Source: Eukaryota sp. GEM-RC1 (Eukaryota). From it: 64,000 nucleotides of DNA. The DNA is taken from assembly GCA_040285855.1 (NCBI GenBank), contig JAUFOQ010000017.1:372001-436000 (forward strand), given 5' to 3'. This document shows positions 2,814-64,000 of this stretch, piece after piece (the first letter of the stretch is position 1; each line of letters starts with the position of its first letter). The notes under the pieces are model-generated. The model made no database searches and was not told where the DNA came from. It was given only the letters and a program-made list of their open reading frames with translations. The translations under genes were made by a program, and so were the position numbers.

Positions 2814-3823
2814 AAAAAGGGATGAATAAATGGATTGTGCATTCATCGATAGTGACTGAGAGAAAAGTTCTAATCAAATATTTTGTTTTTATTTGGGTTT
2901 TATTTTGTTTTAATTATATTTATTTCACATTTATTTTTGGCACTTTTCGATGTTCAAATTATTTTAAATTATCTTATGAGAGAGCTTGTCTCAAAGTACC
3001 CATCTCCTCTGGTTAATTTTCAACTACCGTCATAATGCATTCGAAGCAATAAAGGACCGTAAGAAGTAGAAGTTGTCATACATTTAATGATCTAGAACAC
3101 AGTTCTATTTTCCAAAATCTGAAATCAGAAGTCCTACAGCTTTCTTTTTACAATGTTCACAAAGTTCTGAAGTAATGGAGTTACTGATGAACCTAGAATA
3201 CGATTGAAGTTTTCAAACCCATTCTTTTGAGAGAAGAAATAATCCAATTATCATCGTTGAACCGCTATCACTGTTGCATGCGCAGAAGTCCGTCGTCAGT
3301 GTATCTAAAGTTCCACAAAATCTAAGGAAATTGATAGATCACTACAGCTCAAAAGTGGAGTAATTTTTGTAAAACAACAGTGTTCGAGCATGCTAAACTC
3401 GATGTGTTGTTCAATGACGTCGTACTCACATACAATGAAGTTTAATTGAATCATGTTGTATTAGCATGATAACGGCAACAGAAAAGATATAATTCTACTG
3501 ATCACATGTTTTTTTGAACGACTGATCAAAGTTTGAATAAATGAAAATGAAATTTGTCGTCTTACTTGAAGTAATAAGTTGCTTCGAATTTTATCTGAGA
3601 TAAAAGAAAAACAGTATTGTTGATCATTTGATAAATCTTAATTGTTACTACAGTTGTTTGTTTCGAATCATTTTAATGTTGACACTTCTGCATCTGCTAT
3701 TGTTGGGATTGTCATGGAAACTACAAAAGTAGACTTCCTTACCGTCCAGGAACCTTCACTTGATCTTCTCAGATGTTGTTGTGTAATCCTTAGAGATTGT
3801 TAGTCTGAAGGAAGAAGTGCCAC

Positions 3824-6800
3824 ATGACAATTTTTGAGCTGATGACAAATATAGTGGATCTTTCTCTCATCTCAACAATGATCCACTTGAATTGTTCGAT
3901 CTGCGCTTCAACCTTTGACAAAGCTTCCACGCTGCCCTGTGGACATTCCTTTTGTCTCACGTGTATCACTGAATGGCTAGAAGGACACCAAAATTGTCCT
4001 ATTTGTCGTAAACAAGCCTCTATCAATGATGTTGCCCCTAGTTATGTTCTCTGTGAAGCTGTCGATGCCTTTGTTAAGAATCCCGCCGCAGTACCCGAGA
4101 TCCCGTCTGAAGACCTCAGTTTCACTATCAACAATGAATTGGGTAGTGGAATCAGCGGAACTGTTTATCTCTGTGAATGGGCTGACACCAATGTTGCTTT
4201 AAAGCTCGTCCGTAAAGATGATCAGAATGAAGCAAGACTCTTGCAAGAAGTCTCCTACATGGTCTCTCTGTCTCATCCTTTTGTCCTTAGTGTGTTTGGT
4301 ATAACCAGACTTCCGAAGCACATTGGTATCTTGATGGAACTTGGTTCTGGACATCTACAAGTCCCAACATCTCTTTCTCCCACCACCCTTGCTCAAGCTA
4401 TTGATCTATGTACCGCTGTAAAGTACTTGCATTCCAAGGAAATTGTACACCATGACATAAAGCCCCAAAATGTCATTATAGTAAATTCGCAGGTCAAACT
4501 TGCCGATTTTGGTTCTTCACGTACCATGTACAACTATACGTCCACGCTCCAAGTAACTCCGAAGTACACACCTCCGGAAGCGTTTAAGAAAATCTATGGT
4601 CCTGCTTTCGACGTTTATAGTCTGGGAATATTGTTTTATGAAATGTTTACCAACATACTTGCATTTGAGGATATGCTTGTTTTTGAACTAGTTATGGCTA
4701 AACAAAATGAACATTTATTGAGCTTTCCTGATGGTTTTCCTGTGCCAATTTCAACCTTAATTAACAAATGTCTTTCAGTTAATCCTAGTGAAAGACCTTC
4801 TATTAATGATGTACTAAAAGTGTTGAAAGAAATTCAAGGAACCATTGAAGTCTTTGAGTTGAACAATTTTCTAGCAAATGATCTTCAATTAGAGAAAAGT
4901 AGTGATGAATTAGCTTTTGAAGGTTACCAAGAAGCTGCAGAACGAGGTGATGCTGAAGCCATGGTTAATCTGGGTAACTGTTTTCTTAATGGTATTGGGA
5001 TATACAAGGACGAGAGACAAGCCGTTTACTGGTTCTTGGAAGCTGATTCTAAGGGAAACTCTAACGCAAGAACACACTTGGGCAAATCTATTCATTGGTG
5101 TCAAAAACACGCAGAATTAGGTGATGAACTTGCAATGAAAGCCCTTGGCGATTGTTACAACAAAGGACAAGCAATCGAAAAAGACCAATCAAAAGCTGTG
5201 TATTGGTATCAAAAGGCTGCTGAGTTGGGCAAATCTATCGCCATGTATAACCTTGCTCGTTGTTACAAAAATGGAGAAGGAATCGAAAAAGACCAATCAA
5301 CAGCTGTGTACTGGTACCAAAAAGCTGCAGATTTGTGTGACTCTGATGCCATGTTCTCGCTTGGTTATTGTTACAATTGTGGACAAGGAGTCGAAAAAGA
5401 CCAATCAAAAGCTGTGTATTGGTATCAAAAGGCTGCTGAGTTGGGCAAATCTGTCGCCATGTATAACCTTGCTCGTTGTTACAAAAATGGAGAAGGAATC
5501 GAAAAAGACCAATCAAAAGCTGTGTATTGGTACCAAAAAGCTGCAGATTTGGGCCACTCTGGTGCAATGCATAATCTTGGTGTTTGTTACGCAAACGGAC
5601 AAGGAATCAAAAAGTACCAATCAAAAGCCGTGTCCTGGTATCAAAAAGCGGCAAATTTGGGTCACTCTGGTGCCATGTTTACTCTTGGTGATTGTTACTT
5701 TCATGGAGAAGGAATCGAAGAAGACCAATCAAAAGCCGTGTACTGGTATCAAAAGGCGGCAGATTTGGGTGACTCTGGTGCGATGTTTAATCTCGGTGTT
5801 AGTTACTTTCATGGAGAAGGAATCGAAGAAGACCAATCAAAAGCCGTGTACTGGTATCACAAGGCTGCAGATTTGGGTGACCCTGGTGCCGTGTTTAATC
5901 TTGGTGATTGTTGCTTTCATGGAGAAGGAATCGAAGAAGACCAATCAAAAGCCGTGTACTGGTATCAAAAGGCGGCAGATTTGGGTGACTCTGGTGCCAT
6001 GAATAGTCTTGGTAGTTGTTACTTTAATGGAGAAGGAATTGAAGAAGACCAATCAAAAGCCGTGTACTGGTATCAAAAGGCGGCAGATTTGGGTGACTCT
6101 GGTGCGATGTTTAATCTCGGTGTTAGTTACAAAAAGGAGAAGGAATCAAAAAGACCAATCAAAAGCCGTGTACTGGTATCAAAAGGCGGCAGATTTGGGT
6201 GACTCTGGTGCGATGTTTAATCTCGGTGATTGTTACTTTCATGGAGAAGGAATCAAAAAAGACCAATCAGAAGCCGTGTACTGGTATCAAAATGCGGCAG
6301 ATTTGGATGACTCTGATGCCATGAGTAGTCTTGCTAATTGTTACTTTAATGGAGAAGGAATCGAAGAAGACCAATCAAAAGCCGTGTACTGGTATCACAA
6401 GGCTGCAGATTTGGGTGACCCTGGTGCCGTGTTTAATCTTGGTGATTGTTACTTTCATGGAGAAGGAATCGAAGAAGACCAATCAAAAGCCGTGTACTGG
6501 TATCAAAAGGCGGCAGATTTGGGTGACTCTGGTGCCATGAATAGTCTTGGTAGTTGTTACTTTAATGGAGAAGGAATCGAAGAAGACCAATCAAAAGCCG
6601 TGTCCTGGTATCAAAAAGCGGCAGATTTGGGTCACTCTGGTGCCATGTTTACTCTTGGTGATTGTTACTTTCATGGAGAAGGAATCAAAAAAGACCAATC
6701 AAAAGCCGTGCACTGGTATCAAAATGCGGCAGATTTGGGTCACTCTGGTGCAATGCATAATCTTGGTGTTTGTTACGCAAACGGACAAGGAATCAAAAAA

Positions 6801-7007
6801 GACCAATCAAAAGCCGTGCACTGGTATCAAAATGCGGCAGATTTGGGTGACTCTGGTGCCATGAATAGTCTTGGTAGTTGTTACGCAAACGGACAAGGAA
6901 TCAAAAAAGACCGATCAAAAGCCATGTACTGGTATCAAAAAGCGGCAGATTTGGGTGACTCAAGGGCACAAAGGCACCAAAGGCGACTAGAACTACTATT
7001 ATGGTGA
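3824..7007 (+). CDS. RING finger - protein kinase - SEL1-repeat protein, frameshifted near 6130-6152
   Basis: C3HC4 RING (CSIC...CGHSFCLTC...CPIC); kinase motifs GSGISG, VALK, HHDIKPQN, DFG, YTPPE; 36-aa SEL1 repeats. ORFs 3824-6202 and 6009-7007 join if two single bases are restored at A-runs relative to the repeat consensus. Confidence 0.88.
5110..6975 (+). repeat. 108-bp coding tandem repeat (about 17 SEL1 units)
   Basis: GACCAATCAAAAGCCGTGTACTGGTATCAAAAGGCGGCAGATTTGGG recurs every 108 nt with near-identical units. Confidence 0.92.
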
Positions 7008-7812
7008 TTTGTCAATAGCAAATGGAGTTGTTGTATCTTGTACTTGCGTTCTGCAGTTCAACTTCTCGTAGACTCTCTGATACACGTCTTACTAAATTAA
7101 ATGTATTAAATTTTACAATTAGAAATTAATTACTGTTCAGTTTCAATTCAAGAACTTTACACATCACTTTGAACTTCTTTTTCTTTGAAAGATACAGTTT
7201 AACCAACAATAATGAGCAATAGTCATCATATCAACGTTTAAGTGGAATTATATACTTGACTGGTTTATATCACCAGCTCATGACAATTCTCACGAGAATT
7301 GACTGAGTCAACTCACGAAAATGACTCACAAATCAATCTTCTTTTAATACATGTGAGTCATTACTGTGACTCAATTGAAATAGACGTGATCAATATTAGA
7401 CTTCAATAAGTCAATGTGTGGGTCGAGATCAAAACAAGTTGATTATTTTGAGAAAAATTTAGTACGATGAACTTGATACCATTAAATACATCATTTCGAA
7501 TCTTGATCTCTTTGAAATTTGATGATTCCTTTCAAATCCATACGTCAAATCAAATAGTAGTGTTCTTTTTTTATAAACGATCATGACTGATGTATATTAA
7601 ATGATGGAAATTCAAACATTAATCATACACTGGAGAAGTTTAGTGATGATTACAGGTATTTGAGGCAAAAATTTTGCTATCATTTGAAAAACGTGTACGC
7701 AAATGTACGATTAACTAGAACAATCAACATGACTTACTGTTTTCGTTTTTTCTACTTCATAAATGTCTGTAATTCGTATTTTCGAAAGGATGTAGATGTA
7801 CTACATAGATCG

Positions 7813-8100: not shown

Positions 8101-9626
8101 CCGTCACCTCAGCTTCGTCCAACTCACTCAGGTTAAAGAGTCGATCGAATTTCTTATCAACTCTTTCCTTCTGCTTCGAGAAGTTTGGTTCCTTGGCTTT
8201 GAGAAAGGTTTTCCTTCTTTTTTCATGTTCGTTATGTTGTTCTCAAAACATACTTGAACTGATGAGATGTCGTAAACTGCATTAAATTTTGAGCAATTGG
8301 TTTTTTCGGAAGCAAATTCCGAGAGTTCCTTCAGACTCCAGTAAGCTGCCACTGGTTTATCAAAAATTTTGGGTGAATTTATAATACTAAAGAGCTTGAT
8401 CGCTCAAGAAATTGTACTGTTTTAGTTTGCTTCATCTTTAGGTTTACACCGGTTCTTTTTTTTACTGAAACACATAGGAAAAGAAAGAGATCAGAAGGGG
8501 TTTATACAACAGTGCTTTGGAAGAAATTTGGATATTATTTCGATCCAGATCCTAATCCCTTCATATCCAAAGAATTTTGCCAATCTTGATGCCGTTGACT
8601 TTTGATGTTCTTCTAGCCCTCAGAACTATCAACGATCTTCGGGCTGAAGACTCATGCTTCCGAAGACACCCATGTTCGTGTAAAAAAGTGGTATCAAGTA
8701 TTTTATACTACCCCCCTACTCGCCGGAAAGTAATCCCATCGAGTGTTTCTTTGGAATGCTGTGCAGAAGGATCAAAAATTTGGCTCACCAATTTCCCTCA
8801 GCGTCCTCACCTGATTTAATTAAAACGGGTTTAGAGAGCTTGAGAAGTAAACAATGTCGCTCACTTTTTAACAAAACTGGTTGGAGACAGAAATGTATGT
8901 ATCGTTCTTACTTAACTGACGAACATCTTTCCCATAGTATAGATCTTGATCGAGGTACAGTAAGTGCCGTTGAGATTTTTGATCTCCATCAAACTCAGTC
9001 ATTGATGATCTATATGAAGCTTAATCTCTTCCACTGTTACTGATGAAACATTTATTTCAGAATGTTTCAAGGTTATCTGAAAAGTGGGAATTTACTACAT
9101 ACATTGTCCATTGCACTGAGGTTACGACTAGCTCCTGGTGACAAAACCGAAGGTCCAGGAGGAGAAACATGAAGGCTGCGAATGAAATTAGTCAAGTCAG
9201 CATTCAGCTGGAAAGTCAGACTGTGTCCAAAATCTTGCACCTGTTGCTCAAATTGTACAAGCCGTTGATTCATAAATTAGACAATTTGGTCCAAGGATGC
9301 CATTTCAGTCTCCGCTATATGTTAAGATGGGACCTTTTGTGCGTGTTCAAGGGTAACAGCAGGGATCTCGGAAGCATCATCTATATCCCCGGCTTCATAC
9401 ATAAGTTTCAACTTCATCCACTGATGTGTGGGAAGAGCTACTTCGGAATTTTGCAGCCTTTAAATCTAGGATACTGGTGCTGCGGCGGTTAGTCGCCTTG
9501 ATAGCTTGCACAAAGGACTGGTGAACTTGTTGAGGGTTATCTCAGCAAATAAAATCTTGTCAATCTGATAATCGATTTATTGAAGACATATCACTCTCGT
9601 GATTTTTTTTAACTATTAGTTATACC

Positions 9627-10705
9627 CATACTTGTTGATCACACTCGTTTTGTCAGTGTGATCACAATCACAAATTATGATCACAAATACTGTTTATTGG
9701 GAAAAATAAAGTTGATAATACTGTATTATATTATTTATACATATCGAAATAACATATCCATACAGCTTTCTTTTGCAAACACGATCTATTTCACTGTCCT
9801 GAGACCAATCTACATCAATGTGCTCCTCCATATCTGAATCTTCGATCACAAAAGCTTCTCCAATATCTTCTTTATCTTCCTCATCCTCATCGTCAACTGT
9901 GATGTCGTCAAAAACATCTCTCAAATCAACATTTGCTACCACATCCATTGTATCTGCCTGTTGTTCTTCTTCTGCCAACAACACTAAAGACCCACATTTC
10001 CACATCCAAAAGAACATCCCCCACTCTAGATTTGGTCTCAAGTATTTAGTTGAATACCGAGATTCAAATTTTTGGGTTCTTGTTTTAGAAGAGGAGTATT
10101 GAAATGTATAATCGTCATGTCATCCAAATGATCGTTGGTCAATTTCAACCTTCTTTTGGACACCTGGAAGTCAAATGAAGACCATTTCCTTTCTGTTGTA
10201 GATGCTGAACCAGTATGGCCCGTAATTCTTTGAGCTAATTGACTCAACTGTGGATAAAGCTGTTTACCAACAGAGTACCACCATTGATGGACAGCCAAAT
10301 TAATGATTTCAGAAGTAGTAAGTTTTGTGGTAAAATCTATTGTATGATATATTATTGTTTGATATCTTATAGCACCATTAACATTGAAAGTCTTCCTTAC
10401 CTGATGTGTTTTCACGAACTTTCACAAGCTGGTAGAGCGGATTGTCCTTATTACAATCGGATTGGAGAAAAGGAAGTGATGGCATTGTGGGGAAATGGTA
10501 AATGTAGTTTTCGAGCACCACATTAGACTCTAATCTTGTGCTCTATACTGTAGAGTGTTGTTGAACAATTAAAACTGGTCTAGGTTTATCACATACACGT
10601 ATTATATTAATAACTTCACTTCAGTATGGATCACATTTGAATCACAAGTGATGTGATCACAAAAAAGGCCAGTGTGATCACATGTGTTTGTGATCCACAA
10701 GTATG
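9627..10705 (-). mobile_element. Non-autonomous hAT transposon (1079 bp)
   Basis: TIRs CATACTTGT(T/G)GATCACA at both ends; perfect 8-bp TSD GTTATACC (9619-9626 and 10706-10713); subterminal GTGATCAC repeats. Confidence 0.92.
10038..10415 (-). pseudogene. hAT transposase C-terminal dimerisation domain remnant
   Basis: WW...YPQLSQLAQRI...SASTTERKWSSF...RRLKLTNDHLDDM; the catalytic core is deleted. Confidence 0.8.
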
Positions 10706-10898
10706 GTTATACCTACAATATTGGCCATCAAAGGCAACAGAATGTACACACCAATGTGTACCATTTTGCTAATGCAATAAATGAAAACTGAGAAAATAGA
10801 AAAGGCAACAAGCTAATTTATACTTAAAATAACGTATTCACTCTGGACAATCTAAATCTAACCAAAATAAGCATCTCTATACTAGAAGAAATTGTAAA

Positions 10899-11766
10899 AC
10901 TCCAACTCGACTTCACTCCAACTCAAGTCACTTGTACACTTCACTCCACTTCTGAATTTTATTTTTTCTGTTTATGTTCAAAATGAGCTCACCACGAAGG
11001 GCAGAAAGACGGAGCTTGGATCTGCGATCAGTCAGCCAACATTGCAACTTTGAGAACAAACGTACAACGATGTTCGAAGCAGCTCATATGAAACAAAGAT
11101 CAACTTAATCAGATGATTGATCAGCGAACGCTTTGAAATTTGTGTTTTTCGTCACATGAATAGAAGCTTTCAGGAGAAAGCATTTTCTACGGAAGAGATA
11201 CGAAAATGTTTGAACAGAATACTGAAACGTAGTTGTTTGATGGAATCACGTCAGAAAACAGAGGGGAGAAATTATCGGAAATAATTGCAATCAATTCTGA
11301 TACGGCTATTTGCCAAAAATCAATTATTGTGATATATTTTTTGCAATAATTTAGCTCATAAATTATTTATTGAGGATCCCTAATCAGTTGCATCAGAACG
11401 ATGTTTTTCTGCAAGTGGGAGTACACTAAGCAAAACAAGAAATCGTCTCCCTGATGATTTTCTGGAAGTACTGCTATGTCTTAAATCATGGTATGCAATA
11501 AATCTAAACGTACCTTCATAGCTTTAGTTTAATCAATAGGATTAACAACTTGTTGGACTTTCCTTTTACACTTTGTTTCTAGTGACACAGCATATAGGTG
11601 TTACTCTATAGCGGTAAAACTATTGTAAATACTGATGAAATCACAAGTTTCACTCCAACTCGACTTACTCGTAAAATTTTGATAGAACTCCAATTCGTAG
11701 AAATTTGGAGTGAAGCGGAGTTTGGAGTCTTGGAGTAGAACTCGAGTGCATTTTTGCCCATCCCTA
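10899..11766 (+). mobile_element. Truncated hAT relic of a second family
   Basis: 11384-11521 encodes SVASERCFSASGSTLSKTRNRLPDDFLEVLLCLKSW (hAT dimerisation motif); right end GCCCATCCCTA (TAGGGATG-type TIR) at 11766; ACTCCAACTC subterminal repeats. Confidence 0.7.
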
Positions 11767-12520: not shown

Positions 12521-13147
12521 CACCGATTGTTTCAAATAGTCTCACTGAGACTAATACAGTACGTGATTTTCATGTGTCACATATCGGAATTAGTCTCACT
12601 GAGACTAATTTTTAGTGAGAGTAATTGCAAATAGTCTCACTGAGACTAATTATTTCGCAATTGTATTAGTCTCACTAAATATTTATAAACATGACATCAT
12701 TTTTCTTTGAAATACTTCCCCTAATTCAAGTTACCAATCTCTTTAACAAATACACTTTGCTCTTGATCCATCTGTGTTTCTTCACGATTTCTTGAAGACA
12801 AAAGATCAACTTTTATTCATGCCAAACTCCAGTATCATCTCCAAGCGGATCTTTGAAGATGCTCTGAGCCTTAAAGCTACGAATGAAGCCATAAAAAATG
12901 ATTTCGATTGGTGAGTGGGGAATCATATGGTTAAGTACAGTTTTAAGTTGATCTTATCAGTATAATAGTTCTTCTAATTGTAAAAACTCAATCAATCATT
13001 TGTATTTTTATCGCATCTTTCTCGTTAAAAACAATAACAGTTGTATTTGGGAGGTCAAAATTGAAACTCTGATATCGGAATTAGTCTCACTGAGACTATT
13101 TTCTAGTGACACTAATTTGTTAGTGAGACTAATTGAAACAATCGGTG
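12521..13147. mobile_element. TA-flanked MITE (Tc1/mariner-like), 627 bp
   Basis: 26-bp TIRs CACCGATTGTTTCAA(A/T)TAGTCTCACT; TA on both flanks; internal palindrome TAGTCTCACTGAGACTA at 12537, 12591, 12632 and 13082. Confidence 0.88.
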
Positions 13148-13785: not shown

Positions 13786-14278
13786 GAATGCAGCACTCAG
13801 TGTTCGCTTGTGGTCTCCCACCAAAGAAGCAAAATATTGCTTTCGATGTGACTATTGATGGTGGAAATGGCCATCATCCGATGGATTCTTTCTATTATAG
13901 CTACGCCAAAAAAATCAAAAAGTACAAGGTGTTAAAAGACTTGAAATTAATTAATGATTTAATTCCTCTTGTATTTACCGTACATGGTGGAATTTTCAAA
14001 GAAACTTTTCAAACTTTGAAGAAATTTGGTTATACCCAGATTCTTGATGAAGTTTATTGTAAAATTGTTAAAGGAAGTGTTCGTTGCAAGAATGCGTATT
14101 TGAATATATGTAATTCTGTTAGTGAAAAAATGTATTATTAGTTGTTTAGGTATTTCCATTAATTTTTCCATGTATTTAATTCTTTTATTATAATAAAAAC
14201 TACTAACTAAGCCTTTGGCCACTTAACTTCGGAATTCGGAATGGGATCCGGTGCTATGGACCAAGTATGGCCGCATTC
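13786..14278 (-). rRNA. 5S rRNA: 5S rRNA gene interrupted by an insertion (5' part 14278-14200, 3' part 13825-13786)
   Basis: Joined minus strand: GAATGCGGCCATACTTGGTCCATAGCACCGGATCCCATTCCGAATTCCGAAGTTAAGTGGCCAAAGGCTTAGTTAGTAG + TTTGGTGGGAGACCACAAGCGAACACTGAGTGCTGCATTC = 119 nt; helix I closes (GAAUGCGGC/GCUGCAUUC); followed by TTTTT. Confidence 0.93.
13826..14199 (+). mobile_element. 5'-truncated RLE-type non-LTR retroelement inserted antisense in 5S rDNA
   Basis: Open frame NIAFDVTID...KKIKKY...LIPLVFTVHGG to TAG 14141, a short 3' UTR, then an AATAAAAA tail abutting the 5S sequence. Confidence 0.72.
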
Positions 14279-16690: not shown

Positions 16691-19600
16691 TAAAGTTCTT
16701 TACGAGAGACCTTCGTCTGCTGGACTGACATTACGCTTCTTCTTTTAGGCGAACTCATTTCTTTTGGTGGATTCTTGCATGACCTTTTGTTGTGACCTTC
16801 TTGGCCACAATTTCCACATGTTTTCTTCTTTCCTGTTGAAGTTTTCTTCTTTCGTGTTGAAGTTTTCTTCTTTTTAGTCGCAGTCGTCTTCTTCTTCTTC
16901 TGGTCTCTCGCCAAAGTATCCTTACCACTCTCGAGATCTGTTGTTTGAGTTTTAGATCTCTCGAGAGCGGATGGCCTACCTTGACCATTGATCGTTGCTT
17001 CAATGATGGAATAGATATTAATGGCAGAATTTAGGTCTCTATTCCAATAAGTACCACACTCAGCATCTGAGCACTTTACCAGTCCCAAGGGTGTGGATTT
17101 AGCTTCTTCTTCCAATGACTTCTGCTTCACCTCCCACTCTGCTTCCAAAATCCCGTTGGTTTAGAGGATCTTGTTTGTTTTTGAGCAAAATTTCTCTTCT
17201 TAACTTTCTCTTCTTCCTTCTTAGCTGTCTCTTACCTTTGGGACCAAGAACCTTTAGTTCTGAAACATTTTCACATTCTACGAAAGTTGATTTTTCCTTA
17301 GCACATTTGGAACAACACTTGCTTGTTCTGTATTCATCAACAAGAAATATTTGGTATCCATATCTTCTTAACATTTTACGGATTTCCATTCCTCTGACAG
17401 TAGAGGTTTTGCCCTTTCTTGTTTTACCTTTTGAGCTCCAATCCCCATAGCCAATGACAACGTCTTCTGGAGGTCCATATGTTAAATTGAAGCGTTCCAG
17501 CACGTTTTTTCCGAACGTTGGTTATTAGAATAAATTTGGAATTTCCTCTTTCTAAACCAGTCATCTTCGTAAAAAGAACTCAAATATACGTTATATCTTT
17601 CAGCTTCTTTAATATATGTTTCAAATGTGTCGCTGAAACACGACTTTCTTTCCCCATCGGATACAGCACTGGAGAATTGGTTAACGACATCTCTTCCTGT
17701 TACAAGAATATTATTAGGATGGAGAACCAAAAAATCTTTAAGTTGTCTTTCAGTGACAGTTTCGTCTGGTGATTCAATAGAAAATTCTTTCAGTTTTCTA
17801 TTTTCAGATTTACGATATTTTTTAGATTTCCTATCATAAGCTCTTTCTCCAGCTGTGTAATTAAACTTCTTCCATTTGTGCTTAGCCTTTTTCTTTGATT
17901 TTACATCATTATTCGAATTTTTCCAATCTTGTAATTGTTTCTTTCTTTTCTTAATTCCTCCTCTTTTCTTACTTCTGATTTCTGAGGGTAATCGTTTTTT
18001 GAATGGATTTTTTCAGAAATATCTTCTTCTTTAAGCTCATCGACTGTCTTTTCTGAAACACAATACATTAAATCATATTCATTTGGATCAATACCTACAA
18101 TTCTTTTTTCCTTCAATTGTAATTCTTGAATATTGTCATTTGATAAAGAGTGAATGTATCTTTCCGAAGTTCCGAGAGATTTAGCAGTAAAATCTTTGAA
18201 AGTATTTCCATCTTCATCAACCAAATCTTTTCTCATTAAAACCAAACAAGAAGAAATTCCATCTGTCAGAATTGAAGAATATCTAAAGACAAATGATTTT
18301 GTTGATGCCACAGCTTTGTCAGTAAGGACCTGATCAAAGACCTTTTTCCTTATTTCATCTGCTTTTTTGCCTCGTATATGGACAAATTTTTGATTAATCC
18401 AATCCGTGTCCAAACGAATATGTTGAGGAATCAATGTTTTCGTCATTGGAAAAGGATTGTTTACACTGATTAGTTTTCCATCAACCAAACACAAAGATTG
18501 TATTGTTCGGTTGATGTATAGAGCATGAGAAATTAACTGCATCGGCTTTGCCTTCTGTAAATAGTAAATATTCTTTTTTGAAAACATTGGAAACAATGAA
18601 AATTTCAAATACGCAAAAAAACTCAATGTTAATTCTTCAAGTGGATAAGGGAAGATCTTGTGATTATTAATGGGAATGTCATCAAAATTTCCATTGATAA
18701 TCGAATCTCTGACTGAATTCAATTTCGAAATCAATTCTTTCTTATCAACTTGATCATTTATCTGTTCAAGTCTTACTTTCTTTCTTGTTACCAGATTAAA
18801 GAATCTGAATACATAATCATGAAAATTTTTGACCATATTGTTGGCATAATTTGTAGAAATTTGTTTGGCAGTGTAATGAAATATGGGAGACATTGACGTA
18901 GAATCAGGAAATGAAATTTGATTTGTTCCAATTTCATCAGACAACTGTTGTAGAAGTGGAGAAAAGTTGTTCAAGTAGTGAAATGCAATTTTTTCTTTTT
19001 CATTTATTTCTAGTCATGAAGATTTTTGGAGGTCATCAAGCACTTTTTGAGCCTCTGCTCTTGATATTTCTAAATCTGACTGAATTGAAGAACCAGTTGA
19101 TTTCTTCACATACATCCGTCTCAACACTTGTTTGATTGAAGCTTGGCTAAGAAATTTTGTAAAATCTGGTAAGACCACTGAAAAATTTTTGAATGTAAAT
19201 GAATCAAAATCATGTTCGGACATTAACTCCATTTCACGAAGTTCTTTCTCAAACAAATCATGTTCGTACATTAAGTCTCGTTCATTTGATTCCAAACGTT
19301 CACGTGTTTCAGACTCAGAAATATGGAGATTTTCGTACATTAAGTCTTGTTCGTTTGATACTGACAAATCAGAAGGTTGTAGTGTAAACGAATCAAAATC
19401 GTGTTCGTACATTAAGTCTCGTTCATTTGATTCCAAACGTTGTCTTTCAAACTCACAAATAAGCAGATGTTTCAAAAAATTAGAACCCCTTACTGTTGCT
19501 CTTTGATTTCGGATAACACAGTCTTTAATTAAGACAATATTATCTTGATCTTTAATAACTTTCTCCAATCCCTTTTTCACCACTTTAATTGGATGGCGCT
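16690..19600 (-). CDS. Fanzor1-type (eukaryotic TnpB-derived) RNA-guided nuclease portion
   Basis: RuvC-I IVGIDPN (D 18087-18089); FNYT..ER..D.K.KKY; GYGDWS; RuvC-II VDEYRTSKCCSKC (E 17333-17335); CSDAEC; RuvC-III WNRDLNSAINI (D 17035-17037); also ILTDGISSC and NYANN motifs. Confidence 0.9.
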
Positions 19601-22600
19601 CTAGAACATGTTGAGTTTCTTCATCAAAGAAATATTCATGTAATTCAGTTAGACAGTTAATTCGTTGAAGTAAATCATCAACCAGAGTAATTACTTTTAC
19701 GTTATCAGTCCACAATTTGAAGGTTTGCTTGTTGTGTGCGAGTAAATTAAACTCTTTCTCTATTTCCTTGTTAACGGTTATGTCTGGTACTTTTCGAAAT
19801 TCTGTGAAGTACGTAGTTAATTCTAATGACGACAAAATTAAATTGGGTACATGTTTCCGAAACAATTTTGAACAAACATTTTCCAAACTTCTACCACCTT
19901 TGAACACATAAGTAGACTTTGTCACATTTGCCAAGTCTAGAGAAACAAAGGGTCCAAAATTGCAAAGCTTACACCATCTATGAAACCAGTTGGGTACGTA
20001 GGGTCTGTATGGATTATCTAAATGAAAATTGGTCTGAATCTTAAACAGTTCACATCGTTTAATCAAAAAGGAAACAAAAGTTCATCAGTGTTATAACCAA
20101 TCAACAATCTGGGTTTTGTTTGGCATAAAACTTGGATAAGTTCCCCAATCATGGCTTCTTCTGAAGCACAAACAATTATTTCGACATTTTCAAATGTATC
20201 GTTTATGTTCTTTTTACTAAAAATAACAGTTGAAGTGAAATTAGCATAGATAAATTTTAGACTGATAAAGATTATTTTGTCTTCTTTATCCAAAGGATTT
20301 GCAAACAGTTCTGCTCTCGATGCTTCAACTTCTTCTTTGATTTTAGGAATATCAGCATCCTCTGGTTCCTCAGAGTCATCTTCAATATCATCAGAGTCGA
20401 CACTTTTTTTAGGCAATACTTTTTTAGTTGATTTGAGAATTCTTGGATTGAGTCGTTTTGCATCAGTAATCATGGTTTTAAAATCAATTAAACAAAATGT
20501 TGGGATTTCTTCTGTTTCTGTTAATTCTGATAGATTCGATTTCTTAAATGGAGGAGTAATTCCACTTTTTTGAGGTTTATGTAGTTCTGTTTTAGATGAG
20601 GAGACTAAGGTGTCTACAGAAACAACTTCTTTTACAGGTTCAGTGTGTAGACTTTCTTCCATGATAAGTATATCCTTTTGCATTGACGGTGGATATAAAG
20701 AAATAGATGCTTGTAATTTTGGTGGTAGGTCTGTTAACCTAATAGACGATTCTTTGGACATTAGCTGTTCTTCTTCTTCCTCCTCTTCTTCTTCTTCTTC
20801 CTCTTCTTCTTCTTCTTCCTCTGGTGGATTAAGTGATTCAAGATACGAGTAGATTTCGTTTCGAACAGCAAGAGCATCAATTTCCATATTAAGCAACAAC
20901 GATTCAGCATGAGACAGGCTTGGAAGTTCACTTAGATTGTTTAAAAATTGGTGAATATACTCTATAACATAGATTCCACAATCATTGGGCGTCTGCTTTC
21001 GCATAACAGGAAAAACAATTGGTTCGAATTCAAGAATGCTAAGATCTGATGCTACTATAGAAAGGACATTTGTCAGCAGAGAAGTCTTGATAATATTTCC
21101 ATCCTGTGCAAAATCACGAGTATCGTAATATGGGTCAATAAACATCCAGTTCCTGATTTGACAATCAATGATAATCAAACCCCAATGAATACCAGATTGT
21201 GCTGGTTCTGTAAATCCATCATTCAACGGAGCAATAAGAAATCTGTTGCCTCGATTTAAACATTCGAGAGTTTTATCAAGTAGAAAAGATGACAGATTGT
21301 GACTAGTGATGTAATACTTCATCACTGAAGGGGGGATAAAAGAAGTCCAATCGTAACCATAAATTTCAAATAATTTCTTACAATATAGTCGTATAACTTC
21401 ATCATCGACCCAGTTATTCGGTTCCACAGAGGTCAAAGTCTCATCAGAAACAACTTTTTTGGGTTTAGTCTCTGATCGACTCAAACGGTTCTGAATCTCT
21501 TGTCGAACTTCTACAGTGTTTATGTTGGCTATTTCAAGCAATTTGGATTCCAAATACAGCCCAGGGATTGTTCGTAATTGTGACAAAAGTTCATTAAATT
21601 TCTCTATATATTTTAGGACATAAATTCCACCGTCGTTTAAAGTTTGCTTGGTTGCAACAGGAATTGGTTTGAGATTATAAGTTCCAAAAGTTGTTTGAAC
21701 TATATTATATATCTGTTTCAAAGACGAAGATTCTATTGAAGAATCTGAATCACTCTTTGGATCAATAAATATACCTTCCAAACGCACACAATCGACAATA
21801 ACTAGCCCCCAGTGAGTTCCATCATTGGCCGGTTCTGTCATGGAATCATTTAGTGGGATTATGAGATAGTTGTATCCTTTTTCCTTAGTGACATTGACTT
21901 TGTCATTGATAAAAACATCTAACGATAAATCAGGAAAAAGATTGTATCCTTTTAAAAGAGCAGGTTGAATAAAAAGATCATCGAAATCAACACTAGAGGC
22001 TTGTGGTTTGAAATATGTTTGAAATATGGTTCTAGAAAACTCAACAAAGACTTCATCATCTACCAAACGATCATGTTGCAAAGAATCTAAAGCTTCTTGA
22101 GAAACTGGCCCTGGATTGGATTCCACGTCACCATCCATGGTGAGATCTTCTTTGAATGGGGGACGGGAGGAGAAAACTATACGTAATATGAGACACAAAG
22201 CAGAAATAGATGAAGAAACAACACAAAGGATCATCTGAGGAACATTACGAGACGAAGTCGAGGGTATGATGGAAAGCACATGAACACAATTCACATGGGC
22301 TGTTTCACTAGCGGAAACGAAAATAATTCTCCAACACCTCATTATACTACCTTGTTCTTGAGGAGCGTGTGAGAGTGAAGTAGTAAGGCGGCAGCATGCG
22401 GAAGAGTAACTCCAACATCTCATTATACTACCTTGTTCTTGAGGAGCGTGTGAGAGTGAAGTAGTAAGGCGGCAGCATGCGGAAGAGTAACTCCAACATC
22501 TCATTATACTACCTTGTTCTTGAGGAGCGTGTGAGAGTGAAGTAGTAAGGCGGCAGCATGCGGAAGAGTAACTCCAACATCTCATTATACTACCTTGTTC

Positions 22601-22633
22601 TTGAGGAGCGTGTGAGAGAATTGATGTCAACAT
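16690..22633 (-). CDS. Reconstructed polyprotein: leader - 2A - 2x Ulp1/C48 protease - degenerate PolB exonuclease - Fanzor1 - CCHC knuckle
   Basis: Six track ORFs are collinear. Joins need single-base homopolymer fixes at ~20067, ~17940, ~17507 and ~17152, plus one in-frame TGA at 19014-19016; first in-frame ATG at 22633. Confidence 0.7.
22106..22147 (-). other. 2A-like ribosome StopGo peptide
   Basis: DLTMDGDVESNPGP fits the D(V/I)ExNPG-P consensus exactly. Confidence 0.88.
22329..22618. repeat. 81-bp tandem repeat, about 3.6 near-identical copies, in the polyprotein leader
   Basis: Units start at 22329, 22410, 22491 and 22572; encode SHAPQEQGSIMRCWSYSSACCRLTTSL on the minus strand. Confidence 0.95.
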
Positions 22634-23384
22634 TGAAAGTAAATGATTGTTTGACAAAGATTTCTTCCATCTATAGTAGGATATCTTACAAGTCAGTCAC
22701 ATTTCATATAATTCCGAACGTAAGAGCTACTAGCTATCTCCTACTTACTAGCTACTAGCTATTCACCCATCCCTCCTGACGACTAAGAAATTATGTCCAC
22801 TCCAGATTTTCTGTTTCATACAAGTGTCTCATATAGATTCAGGGTTACTCTAGTGTTGACAATTAATCTACTGTACATAAATCTCTCTGCATAAAACTTC
22901 ATCTCTCATAAGGTGTAAAAGTAATAACATGTATATTATCTTTTAAAAGCAAACTAGTATGCCTATGTAATTTGTTTGTTGATGTTTTCTATAGTATGTT
23001 TTAAAAGTATATGTGTTAAGTTATTTTATATTGTAATTCAACGTATCTATATTCAGATTAAAGCAAAGAGAAGTTATTAATTGATGACAAATGATTTATT
23101 CCTACTGCTAGTAACTACATGTACACACCCATTGTTTATCCATAACATCATATATAGACTTTATGATCGCATCAATCAATCCAATCAATCTACAAAAGTT
23201 CTGATTTCATCAGGTACATAAATATCATCGCGAAAGTACTCAATATACTTTTTCGACAGATTCTTAATGGAAAAATGATCGTCGTCATGTGCCAAAAGAA
23301 TCTTCAACTTGTAAACTTTTTCATGCAGAGTTCGAAGTAGTAGCATGTCAGAGGGAATGTCATATACGATGTACATGAGATTGT

Positions 23385-23900
23385 TTGGGTGGACAAGTGA
23401 TGTACACTCAAAACAAGCCTGAACTTGGACTAGTTAATGGTTCAAAAGGAGTTATTGTTAATTTTTCAGATTCATATATTGATATTCGGTTCAACGCTGA
23501 AGCAGTACCAAAAAGAATCAGTCAGTCAAGGTTTGCTATCGAACACTTGAACGAAATCGGAAGACCTGTTCAAGTGGCGAAAAGAATTCAGTTTCCGCTA
23601 AGACCTTGCTGGGCGATAACAGTGCATCGATCCCAAGGTTTAACAATTGACGGGATCGAAGTTGCTATCCAGTTTTGGGAATATGCCCAACTTTATGTGA
23701 CCTTAAGTAGGGTTAGGTCTTGGAGGAGTTTAAAGATTTTAAGCATTGGAAGAAGTTATCCAGTACCAAATTTGGAATTATATCAATGGTATTATTCAAC
23801 TTTTCATCCTGTTAAGCCATCCACTATTGATTTGTATGTTTTGGGAAATGTATGTTTTGGGAAATCAACATTGTCTTCAACGAGATTTCAATCATTTTAA
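23385..23900 (+). pseudogene. PIF1-family helicase C-terminal fragment (Helitron-like)
   Basis: QVMYTQN...GLVNGSKG, RIQFPLRPCWAITVHRSQGLT, AQLYVTLSRVRS; no Walker A/B half and no ATG start. Confidence 0.8.
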
Positions 23901-24143: not shown

Positions 24144-25090
24144 GAATCTGATAGTGATACAATTTCAACAAGTTTGGATGATTTTGTTGTAAATGATGAA
24201 CTTGAAGAAGATGAAACTAATATTCCTCCCAAATTTATTAATTGTGACTCAATTTTTAACAAAAATTCCCCAGAGATTTGTGTGAAAAAGTCTAAACTTC
24301 CTCAATTACCACGAGGCAACATTACTCTACCATCGCTTCCCCGTTTGAAGAAAACCCCCTTTACCAACGAAGAATTTATTATTACAAAAGAATATTAATG
24401 CTGGTGTAGAAAGAAAAAAGTTCCCAAGTATTTCCTCATAGTGAAGATGAAAAGCGATTTTGTCTCAAGGAAGTTCAAACTGAAAGCTTTGAAAATGAAA
24501 AATGTGATTCCATATGTGAATATCAACAAACTGACAATGTGACTTATGAAACAATATCATTGTCTCCTATTTTGGAGTATGAACGTGTTGCTACTTCAAA
24601 ACAATTCAGAGTGGACTTAACTATTGGAATTCAGTCAATTGTCGATAATGTACTAGATTGTATTGGATCTGAATCTGCATCAAGTATGGAAGTGAAAACA
24701 ATAAGGAACTGTTACATTACCGATGTGATTAATAAGGATAATGTTGATGCACGTTATTGTAGTGATGTGCTTGTGGAATTGTTTCATGTGTTGAAAGAGT
24801 ATTTGAAAAATGATGAAAAGACTGGCATGTGTGTTTTATTAGAATTATATATAATTTTGAAAAGATTGGACAATATAGACAATTTTGATAGTTTCATCTT
24901 GTATTACACATCTTGTATTACGAATGTTGTATTACACATCTTGTATTACACATATTGTAAAACACACCTTGTATTACACATCTTGTATTACACATATTGT
25001 GAAACACATCTTGTATTACGAATGTTGTAAAACACATCTTGTATATTACACATCTTTTAGTTGTCACATGAATTACAAATGTTGTAATAT
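24144..25090 (+). repeat. Dispersed repeat, copy 1 (downstream of the PIF1 fragment) ending in a ~14-bp minisatellite
   Basis: Near-identical to the reverse complement of ~63240-64000; ACACATCTTGTATT units at ~24893-25060. Confidence 0.88.
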
Positions 25091-31198: not shown

Positions 31199-32138
31199 AA
31201 TGTACTTATTTGTCGCTTTTACTTTGTAACGATGGCCAAAACTTCACAACTACACAGTTGATTTACAGTAATTCGCAATTTTTTCCCCATTTACACAATA
31301 ACACAAACTACAGAAATTGGTGTAATTAGTGTGGATCTCAATTGGTACACACTAATTCTAATTTTCTTGCTTTTTTAAATGTTAATTTTGGACTTAAATT
31401 GTGTATATATAAGAGTTTATTTGCAACAATAAATTAATACATACTAATTCAAAACTTAAATTGTGTGTATTTTCTTATTCTATAATATGGTAATATCAGC
31501 AGTGATAGAACAACCTTCTTGACGGAGCCCTGGCCAACATGATCACAATAATGATTTATCTTTCTCACAACACCACTCATTAACTACATCCTTCAGATTA
31601 TTTTGTCATTTCAAAAATGAAGAGAATGCAGAAAGAGAATTGATGAACAACCGCCACTTCTCTAGTTCGAAGTAGATTTCCAATCCTGGACAACAGTTCT
31701 TTCTTAAATTAGCTGAATCATGTATCAATCAAGTCAATACAGAAGTTGACTATAATTGTGTTGCATACATGTCAACTTCGCAAAGCAATGATTTTGTGTG
31801 GTTATAGCTTGAACACAACTGGTTGTTGGGAAATTGAACAGTTGAAGTGATAGCTTCAAGGAACAACAAGAAGTATGTTGTGGATTAATAAACAACACAG
31901 TGAACGATTTGTTGTAATAGTGTCACATTGGTAGCATATATACTATATGTATACTGCTCAGTGGAGGATCACCAGTTGTAAAAAGATTTACTAGTCTGTA
32001 TTTTTACAAGGTGTATTATCAATACAGTGAAAAATTGCATTTTGCAAGAATAATCAATACCTAACAGACATCAACTAAAGAATCAGATCTACGATCCTTC
32101 TGTCCTTCACCAAACAACTTACTTACATTCGAAGTATA

Positions 32139-32213
32139 ATATCTGTGCATGGAACGAAACAGTGCAAAGATTAACCTACTCAACCGAAAATTTTCATTGA
32201 AAACTTAACCATA
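32139..32213 (-). repeat. Short fragment of the RLE element family seen at 47515-47946
   Basis: Similar to ~47592-47667 (AACCTACTCAACC.AAAATTTTCATTGAAAACTT). Confidence 0.6.
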
Positions 32214-32249: not shown

Positions 32250-32994
32250 CAGGGATGTTAAAAAATATATTTAAATAAATAAATTATTGTGTGGGCTCGC
32301 AATAAATATATTGATATTGTGTGGGCTTGCAATAAATATATTGATATTGTCGGGCATCACAATAAATAAATATATTTATTGACAATATTATCTGCTGCAA
32401 CTTTAGTACTGGTATAATGTAGAAAAACCGGGTTTATGATCAATCAGTGAAAAATTGCTATCGTGGTATAATCTATTCTTCATCTATTACATCCCCATCT
32501 TGGTGCAACAAATCTTGACAATGATTGTGGAGGAGAATTCTTCGAACAGTCTCTTCATTCCAAAGTTGGGAGTTGTAGAGTACACATCCCCAAGGTTCAG
32601 TTCCGCGAGCAGAAGCAGGGCGAACAGGTTGTGGATTAAGTAGCCGAAAGTAATGTTCAGCAACAAGTTTTGGTTTGATAGTCATCAAGAAAAAAAAAGA
32701 ACAACTAAAATTAGCCATTTTGTTCCATGATGGTATGATCAACTGTTTGTATCCTTGGTTACAAAATTGAGACAGTACTGTACGAATTGAAATGAAGAAA
32801 GTTCGATATTTGCAAATGAAAACACAACAATTTGGCATGAAAAGATATTGTCACAATATTGCAATATATTGCAATATTATTGCATATTGCGATTTGAGAC
32901 AACAAATATATTGTTGACCCAGCTGCTGACAATAAATAAATAAATAATATTTATTGCAATAAATAAAATAAAAATATATTTTTTAACATCCCTG
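32250..32994. mobile_element. Non-autonomous hAT element (745 bp)
   Basis: 21-bp TIRs CAGGGATGTTAAAAAATATAT; perfect 8-bp TSD ATCGTCAC (32242-32249 and 32995-33002); CAATAAATA subterminal repeats. Confidence 0.93.
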
Positions 32995-47314: not shown

Positions 47315-47355
47315 TGTAGAACAATGATGAAGTTTTATTCGTGGACACTTTACTA

Positions 47356-47501
47356 CAAATGCATTTATTTCACTGACTGATCATAAACCCCGTTTTTCTT
47401 TACTACATGTAGCACAATAGTATTGTTTAGTAAACATGACCATTGTGATACATGTGTTTACAAAAACGGGGTTTATGATCAGTCAGAAATAAATGCATTT
47501 G
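47356..47501. repeat. Inverted repeat with ~40-bp arms (47356-47397 and 47462-47501)
   Basis: CAAATGCATTTATTTC(AC)TGACTGATCATAAACCCCGTTTTT and its reverse complement. Confidence 0.85.
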
Positions 47502-47514
47502 CAGAAGATAATAA

Positions 47515-62565: not shown

Positions 62566-63246
62566 GTACAACATTTGGTGATACAACATTTGGTGATACA
62601 ACATTTGTAACTACAACATTTGGTGATACAACATTTGTAACTACAACATTTGTAATGAAAGTGTCGTATGTGTAATGAATTGTTGACCTAGACATGACTC
62701 TTATCTGTCTTCACTAATCAATGTGTTAACCCAGCCAAGAAAGATATTCACTATTAATGTCTAGAGTTGACTGAAAAGAACACCTTCGATCTTTTGAATT
62801 GTTGACTATTTTATATTAGAATTTACAAAACTACAAGTGCTTTCTGTAACACAAAATGTGTTTTACAAGATCTGTAATACAACATTTGAAACACAAGATC
62901 TGTAACACAAGATGTGTTTTACAAGATGTGTAACACAAGATCTGTAATACAACATTTGTAACACAAGATCTGTAACACAAGATCTGTAACACAAGATGTG
63001 TTTTACAAGATGTGTAACACAAGATGTGTAACACAAGATCTGTAATACAACATTTGTAACACAAGATCTGTAACACAAGATGTGTAATACAAGATGTGTT
63101 TTACAAGATGTGTAACACAAGATCTGTAATACAAGATTTGTAATACAAGATGTGTTTTACAAGATGTGTAACACAAGATTTGTAATACAAGATTTGTAAT
63201 ACAAGATGTGTTTTACAAGATGTGTTTTACAAGATGTGTAACACAA
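62566..63246. repeat. Minisatellite arrays (ACAAGATGTGTAAC/ACAACATTTGTAA-type 14-16 bp units)
   Basis: Long array at ~62845-63246 and short TACAACATTTGGTGA array at 62566-62655; reverse complement of the array at 24893-25060. Confidence 0.9.
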
Positions 63247-64000
63247 AATGAAACTATCAAAATTACCTATATTTTCCAATCTTTTTCAAAATTAAATATA
63301 ATTCAAATAAAACACACATCCCAATCTTTTCATCATTTTTCAAATACTCTTTCAAAACATGAAACAATTCCACAAGCACATCACTACAATAACGTTCATC
63401 AACATTATCCCTATTAATCACATCGGTAATGTAACAGTTTCTTATTGTTTTCACTTCCATACTTGATGCATATTCAGATCCAATACAATCTAGTACATTA
63501 TCGACAATTGACTGAATTCCAATAGTTAAGTCCACTCTCAATTGTTTTGAAGTAGCAACACGATTATACTCCAAAATAGGAGACAATGATATTGTTTCAT
63601 AAGTCATATTGTCAGTTTGTTGATATTCACATATGGAATCACATTTTTCATTTTCAAAGCTTTCAGTTTGAACTTCCTTGAGACAAAATCGCTTTTCATC
63701 ATCAATAAGAGGAAATACTTGGGAACTTTTTCTTTCTATACCAGCACTGACATTCTTTTTTAATAATAAATTCTTCGTTGGTAAAGGGGTTTTCTTCAAA
63801 CGGGGAAGCGATGGTAGAGTAATGTTGCCTCGTGGTAACTGAGGAAGTTTAGACTTATTGACACCAATCTCTGGGGAATTTTTGTTAAAAATTGAGTCAC
63901 AATTAATAAATTTGGGAGGAATATTAGTTTCATCTTCTTCAAGTTCATCATTTACAACAAAATCATCTAAACTTGTTGAAATTGTATCACTATCAGATTC
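63240..64000 (-). repeat. Dispersed repeat, copy 2 (inverted relative to 24144-24900), runs off window end
   Basis: Nearly the same peptide (TYETISLSPILEY...YCSDVLVELFHVLKEYLKND) and nucleotide sequence as copy 1. Confidence 0.9.

Follow-up and report, generated by a model that had tools for sequence, protein, structure and literature searches.

A 5S rRNA gene of Eukaryota sp. GEM-RC1 split by a truncated RLE-type retrotransposon copy, a candidate for a 5S-targeting family

Do non-LTR retrotransposons with a restriction-like endonuclease (RLE) use the 5S rRNA gene as a specific integration target? The question is raised by a single 5S rRNA gene of Eukaryota sp. GEM-RC1, which is interrupted by an antisense retroelement fragment. 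The gene lies in a stretch of 64,000 nt (contig JAUFOQ010000017.1, positions 372,001 to 436,000), hereafter the window, and all coordinates refer to the numbering of this stretch (Table 1). Tools for gene insertion are being sought among site-specific RLE retrotransposons, R2 being one of those in use, and it is an open question how RLE elements switch targets. A family homing to nt 80–82 of the 5S gene would, if real, add a new natural target for the RLE class in a deep eukaryote lineage. Such a lineage lies outside the coverage of an animal-based RLE survey, which comprised 4,464 animal assemblies according to the available text of PMC13586686.

The interrupted gene is a genuine 5S rRNA gene. 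The minus-strand match that begins at 14278 is the sole Rfam match within the window, where Rfam found no second 5S or other RNA gene and an ARAGORN scan found no tRNA. Taken alone, the 3′ part matches RF00001 at 13825–13785 (model positions 80–120; 15.6 bits, E 0.21), which is under the gathering score. Since model positions 80–82 (UUU) are common to both Rfam matches, the two halves overlap by three bases. Rejoined with one TTT they amount to 119 nt, as had been counted in an earlier reading made from the sequence only, in which both halves were called intact. In silico, the rejoined RNA adopts the canonical five-helix shape at −41.6 kcal/mol, compared to −29.8 ± 3.6 kcal/mol in 500 dinucleotide shuffles (z −3.3). 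In an alignment to an intact metagenomic 5S sequence of 119 nt (L008), the form with three T scored 124, compared to 119, 117 and 115 for the forms with four to six T. A terminator-like T5 run adjoins the 3′ end, so the interrupted 5S is a normal gene and not a retroposed copy; a 5S retropseudogene was rejected on this run and on the lack of an A-tail after the gene. Likewise rejected was a SINE3, i.e. a 5S-headed SINE, because its body should run in the same sense as the 5S-derived head, which the insert does not, and because the remaining half of the gene continues behind the insert precisely in register. The G+C content is 27.5% in the insert versus 49–53% in the 5S halves.

Table 1 Positions of the split 5S rRNA gene, its insert and further RLE-like remnants in the window
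Feature	Position	Strand	Basis
5S rRNA gene, 5′ part, nt 1–82, final TTT duplicated	14278-14197	-	Rfam RF00001, model 1–82, 59.8 bits, E 8e-13
5S rRNA gene, 3′ part, nt 80–119	13825-13786	-	Rfam RF00001 and pairing with 5′ part in canonical fold
T5 directly 3′ of 5S gene, Pol III terminator-like, putative function	13785-13781	-	sequence
AAA, left copy of 3-bp target-site duplication, or 5′ microhomology	13823-13825	+	Rfam overlap at model 80–82; three-T form is best fit
AAA, right copy of duplication	14197-14199	+	sequence
5′-truncated non-LTR retrotransposon copy, 371 nt, antisense to 5S gene	13826-14196	+	sequence, relatives, endonuclease tree
Open frame, 103 codons plus TAG (14139-14141), C-terminal part of restriction-like endonuclease	13830-14141	+	
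A+T-rich 3′ UTR, 55 nt, ending TTATTATAAT then two non-target A	14142-14196	+	sequence
RLE-like remnant, 5′-truncated	47949-47518	-	profile match 47943-47587, E 9e-7
RLE-like remnant, shorter 5′-truncated copy, 80% identical to 47.9-kb remnant	32213-32060, 80%-identical match near 32010-32213	-	
RLE-like C-terminal remnant, outside RNA genes	51697-about 51310	-	profile match 51652-51413, E 1e-3
RLE-like C-terminal remnant, outside RNA genes	12254-12072	-	profile match 12200-12087, E 0.01

The split of this gene by the insert is real. The earlier reading had placed an insert of ~374 bp at 5S nt ~79–82; these coordinates hold, and the length becomes 371 nt if the 3-bp duplication is counted. The A-tail, A5 at 14195–14199 with a short TTATTATAAT run before it, shares three of its five A with the 5S gene. 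It is minimal, because just two A lie beyond the duplicated three, and a long poly(A) tail was discarded on the same count. The tail does overlap the 5S TTT with AAA on both sides, as the earlier reading had noted, and the part of it outside the target shrinks to these two bases. From a single copy, a 3-bp duplication and an overlap between tail and target are indistinguishable. On the 5S strand 14195–14199 reads T5 directly after nt 79 and resembles a Pol III terminator, as which it may function. A perfect 16-nt palindrome is located at 14183–14198.

The junctions are known from the assembly alone and the tail is very short with its two extra A, both of which would suit an assembly chimera or a repair patch, in which the insert was captured at a break and not retrotransposed. 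We regard such an origin as highly improbable given that both 5S halves are complete, in order and overlapping by exactly three bases, and that the 3′ end of the element was kept and its 5′ end lost, as reverse transcription predicts.

The insert is a dead, 5′-truncated copy, a 3′ fragment, of an unnamed RLE-type non-LTR retrotransposon. It possesses a natural 3′ end, lost its 5′ end, lacks terminal repeats and is flanked by a short (3-bp) duplication, as in RLE-type elements. A run of 103 stop-free codons on the plus strand has a chance of 7e-5 at the composition of the insert. The encoded peptide keeps the second acidic residue and the motifs K..KY and PLVF..GG of the endonuclease; the reverse transcriptase (RT), the CCHC knuckle and the first catalytic Asp were all removed by the 5′ truncation. 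A plus-strand frame without RT and knuckle agrees with the antisense, 5′-truncated insert described in the sequence-only reading. Pfam and NCBIfam assigned no real family to the insert, a GLF match being weak (E 0.009), PDB sequence searches returned nothing useful, a word-index protein search matched 0 of 135 longer candidates, and the ESM Atlas yielded three clusters at 0.93 without a family name. An in-frame ATG contributed by the antisense 5S half extends the frame to a chimeric one of 117 codons (13788–14138, plus strand), which gene callers could annotate; none of four near-length candidates in the protein collection corresponded to it in the word-index search.

An exhaustive HMMER search among 1.84 billion representatives recovered six proteins at E ≤ 0.001 with 32–42% identity, the best of which reached 42% identity and E 1.8e-17. 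Their clusters comprise eight NCBI hypothetical proteins from Eukaryota sp. TZLM1-RC, TZLM3-RCL and GEM-RC1. The accessions of the relatives are KAL0204695.1, KAL0212978.1, KAL0224878.1, KAL0227428.1, KAL0221911.1, KAL0236602.1, KAL0236597.1 and KAL0230899.1. Across these relatives the endonuclease motifs RH, D..FDVT, K..KY and PLVF..GG could be aligned. Upstream of the region they have in common with the insert, they possess LPxxxGGLG, a CCHC knuckle, RH and the endonuclease's first acidic residue, the zinc knuckle being located between RT and endonuclease in P0002, P0003, P0004 and P0005. P0008 extends into the reverse transcriptase (RVT_1, E 1.4e-7) and P0009 carries QGDPLGP. When longer proteins were sought with a profile, 7,992 candidates were scored and 8 of them returned, each carrying PF00078, and the profile built from those eight alone gave the insert 13.4 bits, compared to 4.4 bits for the best of 1000 shuffles. 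The insert hence does have RT-linked relatives, on whose absence the sequence-only reading would have been abandoned. To the nearest full-length RT proteins, the lineage of the element is 21–25% identical over long stretches.

AlphaFold models of P0002, the closest relative, and of the insert had pLDDT values of 83 and 90. For the predicted fold of P0002, seven of the eight structure matches at E ≤ 0.001 were R2 (best E 1.4e-6, TM 0.72). The top three matches of the insert's own predicted model were R2 as well (best E 0.013), none of them at E ≤ 0.001. We assign the element to the RLE-type non-LTR retrotransposons because its relatives bear the CCHC and RLE motifs, one of them an RT, and because the predicted fold of the closest relative matches R2. 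The RLE-like C-terminus that had been read from the sequence is thus supported by motif alignment, profile score and the predicted R2-like fold of P0002.

In an endonuclease tree of 18 rows, the insert grouped with six protist proteins (support 99/99), apart from three remnants of the window (95/94), in a short alignment with long branches. Excluded from this tree were P0005, an exact suffix of P0008, P0009, which shares an 89-residue suffix with P0006, and the short 32-kb remnant. Searches for named references of the CRE or HERO type returned none, and the rows of the tree are without named members. The motifs QGDPLGP, YLDD and LPxxxGGLG resemble those of the CRE group, and from this likeness we presume that the element probably belongs either to this group (CRE/SLACS/CZAR, Cnl1, MoTeR) or to HERO. 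With such early-branching RLE elements the relatives share the order of RT, LPxxxGGLG, CCHC knuckle and C-terminal PD-(D/E)xK endonuclease, and the insert shares the 5′ truncation and the short duplication. In contrast to CRE and HERO, the lineage of the insert forms a separate branch, known here from unnamed protist proteins alone. The CRE group inserts in spliced-leader genes, telomeres and microsatellites and is not known to target 5S.

R2 is co-transcribed with its host rRNA gene. This 28S rDNA-specific element (9dou, 9nl3, 8gh6) resembles the present case in the predicted endonuclease fold of P0002 and in its insertion inside an rRNA coding sequence. However, identity to R2 is 16–17%, the insert resides in a Pol III gene whereas R2 resides in a Pol I unit, and its antisense orientation does not allow co-transcription with the host gene.

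As to the host, we take TZLM1-RC to be a Skoliomonas-type isolate. The labels TZLM3-RCL and GEM-RC1 match the Skoliomonas isolates RCL and GEMRC in the available part of PMC11316075. From these isolate labels, the host is likely a metamonad of the Skoliomonas kind. The terms “5S rRNA” and “retro” are absent from the main text of this genome paper (PMC11316075).

The insertion likely took place via target-primed reverse transcription. The endonuclease would nick the sense strand of the 5S gene after ...GTTAGTAGTTT, i.e. after nt 82, and the exposed 3′ TTT, annealed to the A-rich terminus of the element's RNA, would serve as the primer for reverse transcription. A halt after about 370 nt would yield the 5′ truncation, and a second nick three bases off would lead to the 3-bp duplication. 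The interrupted 5S gene is presumably silenced, because box C of the internal promoter, at nt 80–97 in Xenopus and presumably here, was displaced by 371 nt relative to box A and to the intermediate element, and because of the T5 in the tail. A full-length element in antisense could not be transcribed together with the gene it interrupts and would depend on a promoter of its own or on one in the flank, and the insertion raises the question of how such an element in a Pol III gene is transcribed.

Mutsu, the zebrafish non-LTR element specific for 5S, is of the Tx1 type with an apurinic endonuclease (APE). Tx1 is listed as APE in the available part of PMC4640811. According to excerpts of PMC5340908, Mutsu interrupts the 5S coding sequence like the insert, has two ORFs and about 5.5 kb, and its site lies about 20 nt from the 5S 5′ end. 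The predicted RLE fold and the site at nt 80–82 rule it out. The sequence-only reading had named Mutsu as the 5S specialist, which is confirmed in print (also in the available text of PMC3706591), and had missed Dada-5S as a second described one. The fish Dada-5S elements likewise insert in 5S genes, but are DNA transposons with the target ATTCCCAGGCGGTC and without RT or RLE (PMC8869645, in excerpt). The insert is an RLE fragment at a different target sequence, and Dada-5S with its DDE transposase was rejected. As far as the accessible sections show, a 2024 review names Mutsu and a FISH-level case of Rex3 as entries into 5S (PMC10946416), and 5S arrays of Tribolium are interrupted by Jockey-like elements (PMC11202950). 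The terms “5S rRNA” and “5S rDNA” are absent from the available text of PMC13580325 and PMC13586686, both of which cite Fell et al. 2025.

No RLE element in 5S genes was found in the partially accessible literature; the supplement of Fell et al. 2025 or Repbase may list one. Fell et al. reportedly surveyed RLE elements together with the sequences that flank them.

Is the element, then, specific for 5S? Exactly one copy was seen at 5S nt 80–82. We consider it slightly more probable than an even chance that the element family prefers this site, a judgment in which a low prior for 5S as a target is weighed against a low chance rate. The apparent specificity is inflated, because the insert was singled out for lying in a 5S gene. 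Moreover, the insertion lies in a run of T, which an element with an A-tail could enter whether or not it recognises 5S. For comparison, a non-LTR family counts as target-specific if >20% of its flanks lie in one repeat type (PMC4494074, in excerpt).

Alternatively, the 5S gene may have been entered once by chance, by a dispersed RLE retrotransposon that is non-specific or at most prefers T-runs, a reading to which we give a substantial, though less than even, probability. It gains from four further RLE-like remnants in the window, overlooked in the sequence-only reading. They belong to three families and none has 5S flanks, their flank scores being 18–28 compared to a background mean of 21.6 and maximum of 30. 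Four remnants within 64 kb indicate that dispersed RLE elements are common here, and chance hits in 5S are therefore not negligible. Mobile-element debris fills the region from 8.7 to 24 kb (DDE_3, hAT, TnpB-like, Ulp1/PolB and Pif1-like matches), the genomes of the relatives are 28–55% repetitive (PMC11316075, in excerpt), and HERO elements are largely non-specific (Kojima and Jurka, PMC4640811, in excerpt). The other four of the five RLE clades are mostly target-specific in that account, which counts for a preference. Against chance also speaks that the tree separates the insert from the window remnants, which places it outside the common dispersed lineage, and that no other copy of it occurs within the window; its lineage is separate and apparently rare. 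TTT/AAA starts are also scarce in 5S, just 2 per 119 nt, versus 0.076 per base in the window.

The 47.9-kb and 32-kb remnants are each followed by a sequence resembling an arm of a 152-bp inverted-repeat unit (47353–47504; similar arm at 32421–32452). Their family may either terminate in the end of a small inverted-repeat element or insert there preferentially.

From assumed inputs of 10–200 5S genes and genomes of 21–33.5 Mb, 0.001–0.34 chance hits in 5S per genome are expected for 30–300 copies, or 0.000–0.075 if the element seeks TTT, and 0.07–2.3 for 2000 RLE copies. The low expectation for 30–300 copies counts indirectly for a preference, whereas the upper values, around 0.3 for the lineage of the insert and 2.3 for all RLE copies, speak for a chance entry. 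If this is what happened, the insert is merely one more unnamed RLE lineage of small interest.

Searches of viral, prokaryote and metagenome collections returned no further copy. None of 8 candidate stretches in viral contigs was confirmed, and no pattern match was obtained there. In prokaryote genomes, 1 of 192 stretches (in a flavobacterial record, L009) gave a 27-residue match that was judged to be chance. In metagenomes, the pattern of the 5S site, an exact one that misses most 5S genes, hit eight loci, four of which are Rfam 5S genes and none of which is interrupted or matches any of 17 proteins. L002, L003, L005, L006 and L007 are degenerate 5S-like metagenome copies, several without a proper 5′ or 3′ end, and carry no RLE insert. 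The N-termini of the eight relatives contained no antisense-5S peptide, a weak test as the relatives begin at an internal Met.

The preference of the family for 5S might extend further, to an old RLE lineage of Skoliomonas-type metamonads that is 5S-specific and inserts antisense at the start of box C, with divergent subfamilies (32–42% identical) sharing the target across species. We put this forward tentatively and find it rather doubtful. Of the eight relatives, three map to contigs that measure 67 and 90 kb, including two that are five loci apart. The other five map to contigs of Mb size; four of these five come from one organism, each on a contig of its own. According to Table 1 of PMC11316075, available in excerpt, the Skoliomonas-group assemblies have 16–21 contigs with an N50 of 2–3.7 Mb. 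The enrichment of relatives on tiny contigs counts indirectly for a target preference of the family, as it hints at repeat arrays nearby without naming the target, and the five relatives on Mb-sized contigs count against it. Such arrays of unspecified kind would also accord with a family whose proper target is another repeat carrying a motif like ...TAGTTT/GG, e.g. a microsatellite, a small RNA gene or large-subunit rDNA, and which enters 5S as an occasional off-target. Among Utopia (PMC4640811) and Dada (PMC8869645), both in excerpt, families of weak specificity that also use secondary targets have been described. There was, however, no direct sign of another target and no other RNA gene in the window, and we consider this explanation improbable.

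For a 5S-preferring family, a model of persistence is provided by the RLE element Utopia, which is specific for U2 snRNA and also uses a small, low-copy RNA gene, protists included. Utopia differs in belonging to the NeSL clade, in its U2 target and in a specificity shown on many copies (PMC4640811, in excerpt). If specificity for 5S throughout the lineage were true, the element would represent a compact single-protein, site-specific integrator for a conserved Pol III target, an R2-like enzyme retargeted to 5S.

Several other features were observed in the window. A cluster of long frames at 16693–22696 (minus strand) looks like a large composite mobile element; it contains TnpB/Fanzor-like pieces (Cas12f1-like TNB domain, E 1e-4, 16693–17521), a frame of 877 codons that has matches to Ulp1 protease and to PolB exonuclease, and further frames without an assigned family. 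A Pif1-like helicase fragment is located at 23379–23897. Remnants of Tc1/mariner-like DDE_3 and of hAT dimerisation domains occur at 8684–11500, and a DDE-like remnant near 12750–12950. At 3809–7100 (plus strand) there is a RING-kinase-Sel1 repeat gene, which contains a tandem repeat of 108 bp and whose frame is broken near 6000. The segments 24144–25050 and 62845–64000, about 38 kb apart, form a long inverted pair that is 96–97% identical over 449 and 218 nt and includes a 14-bp minisatellite.
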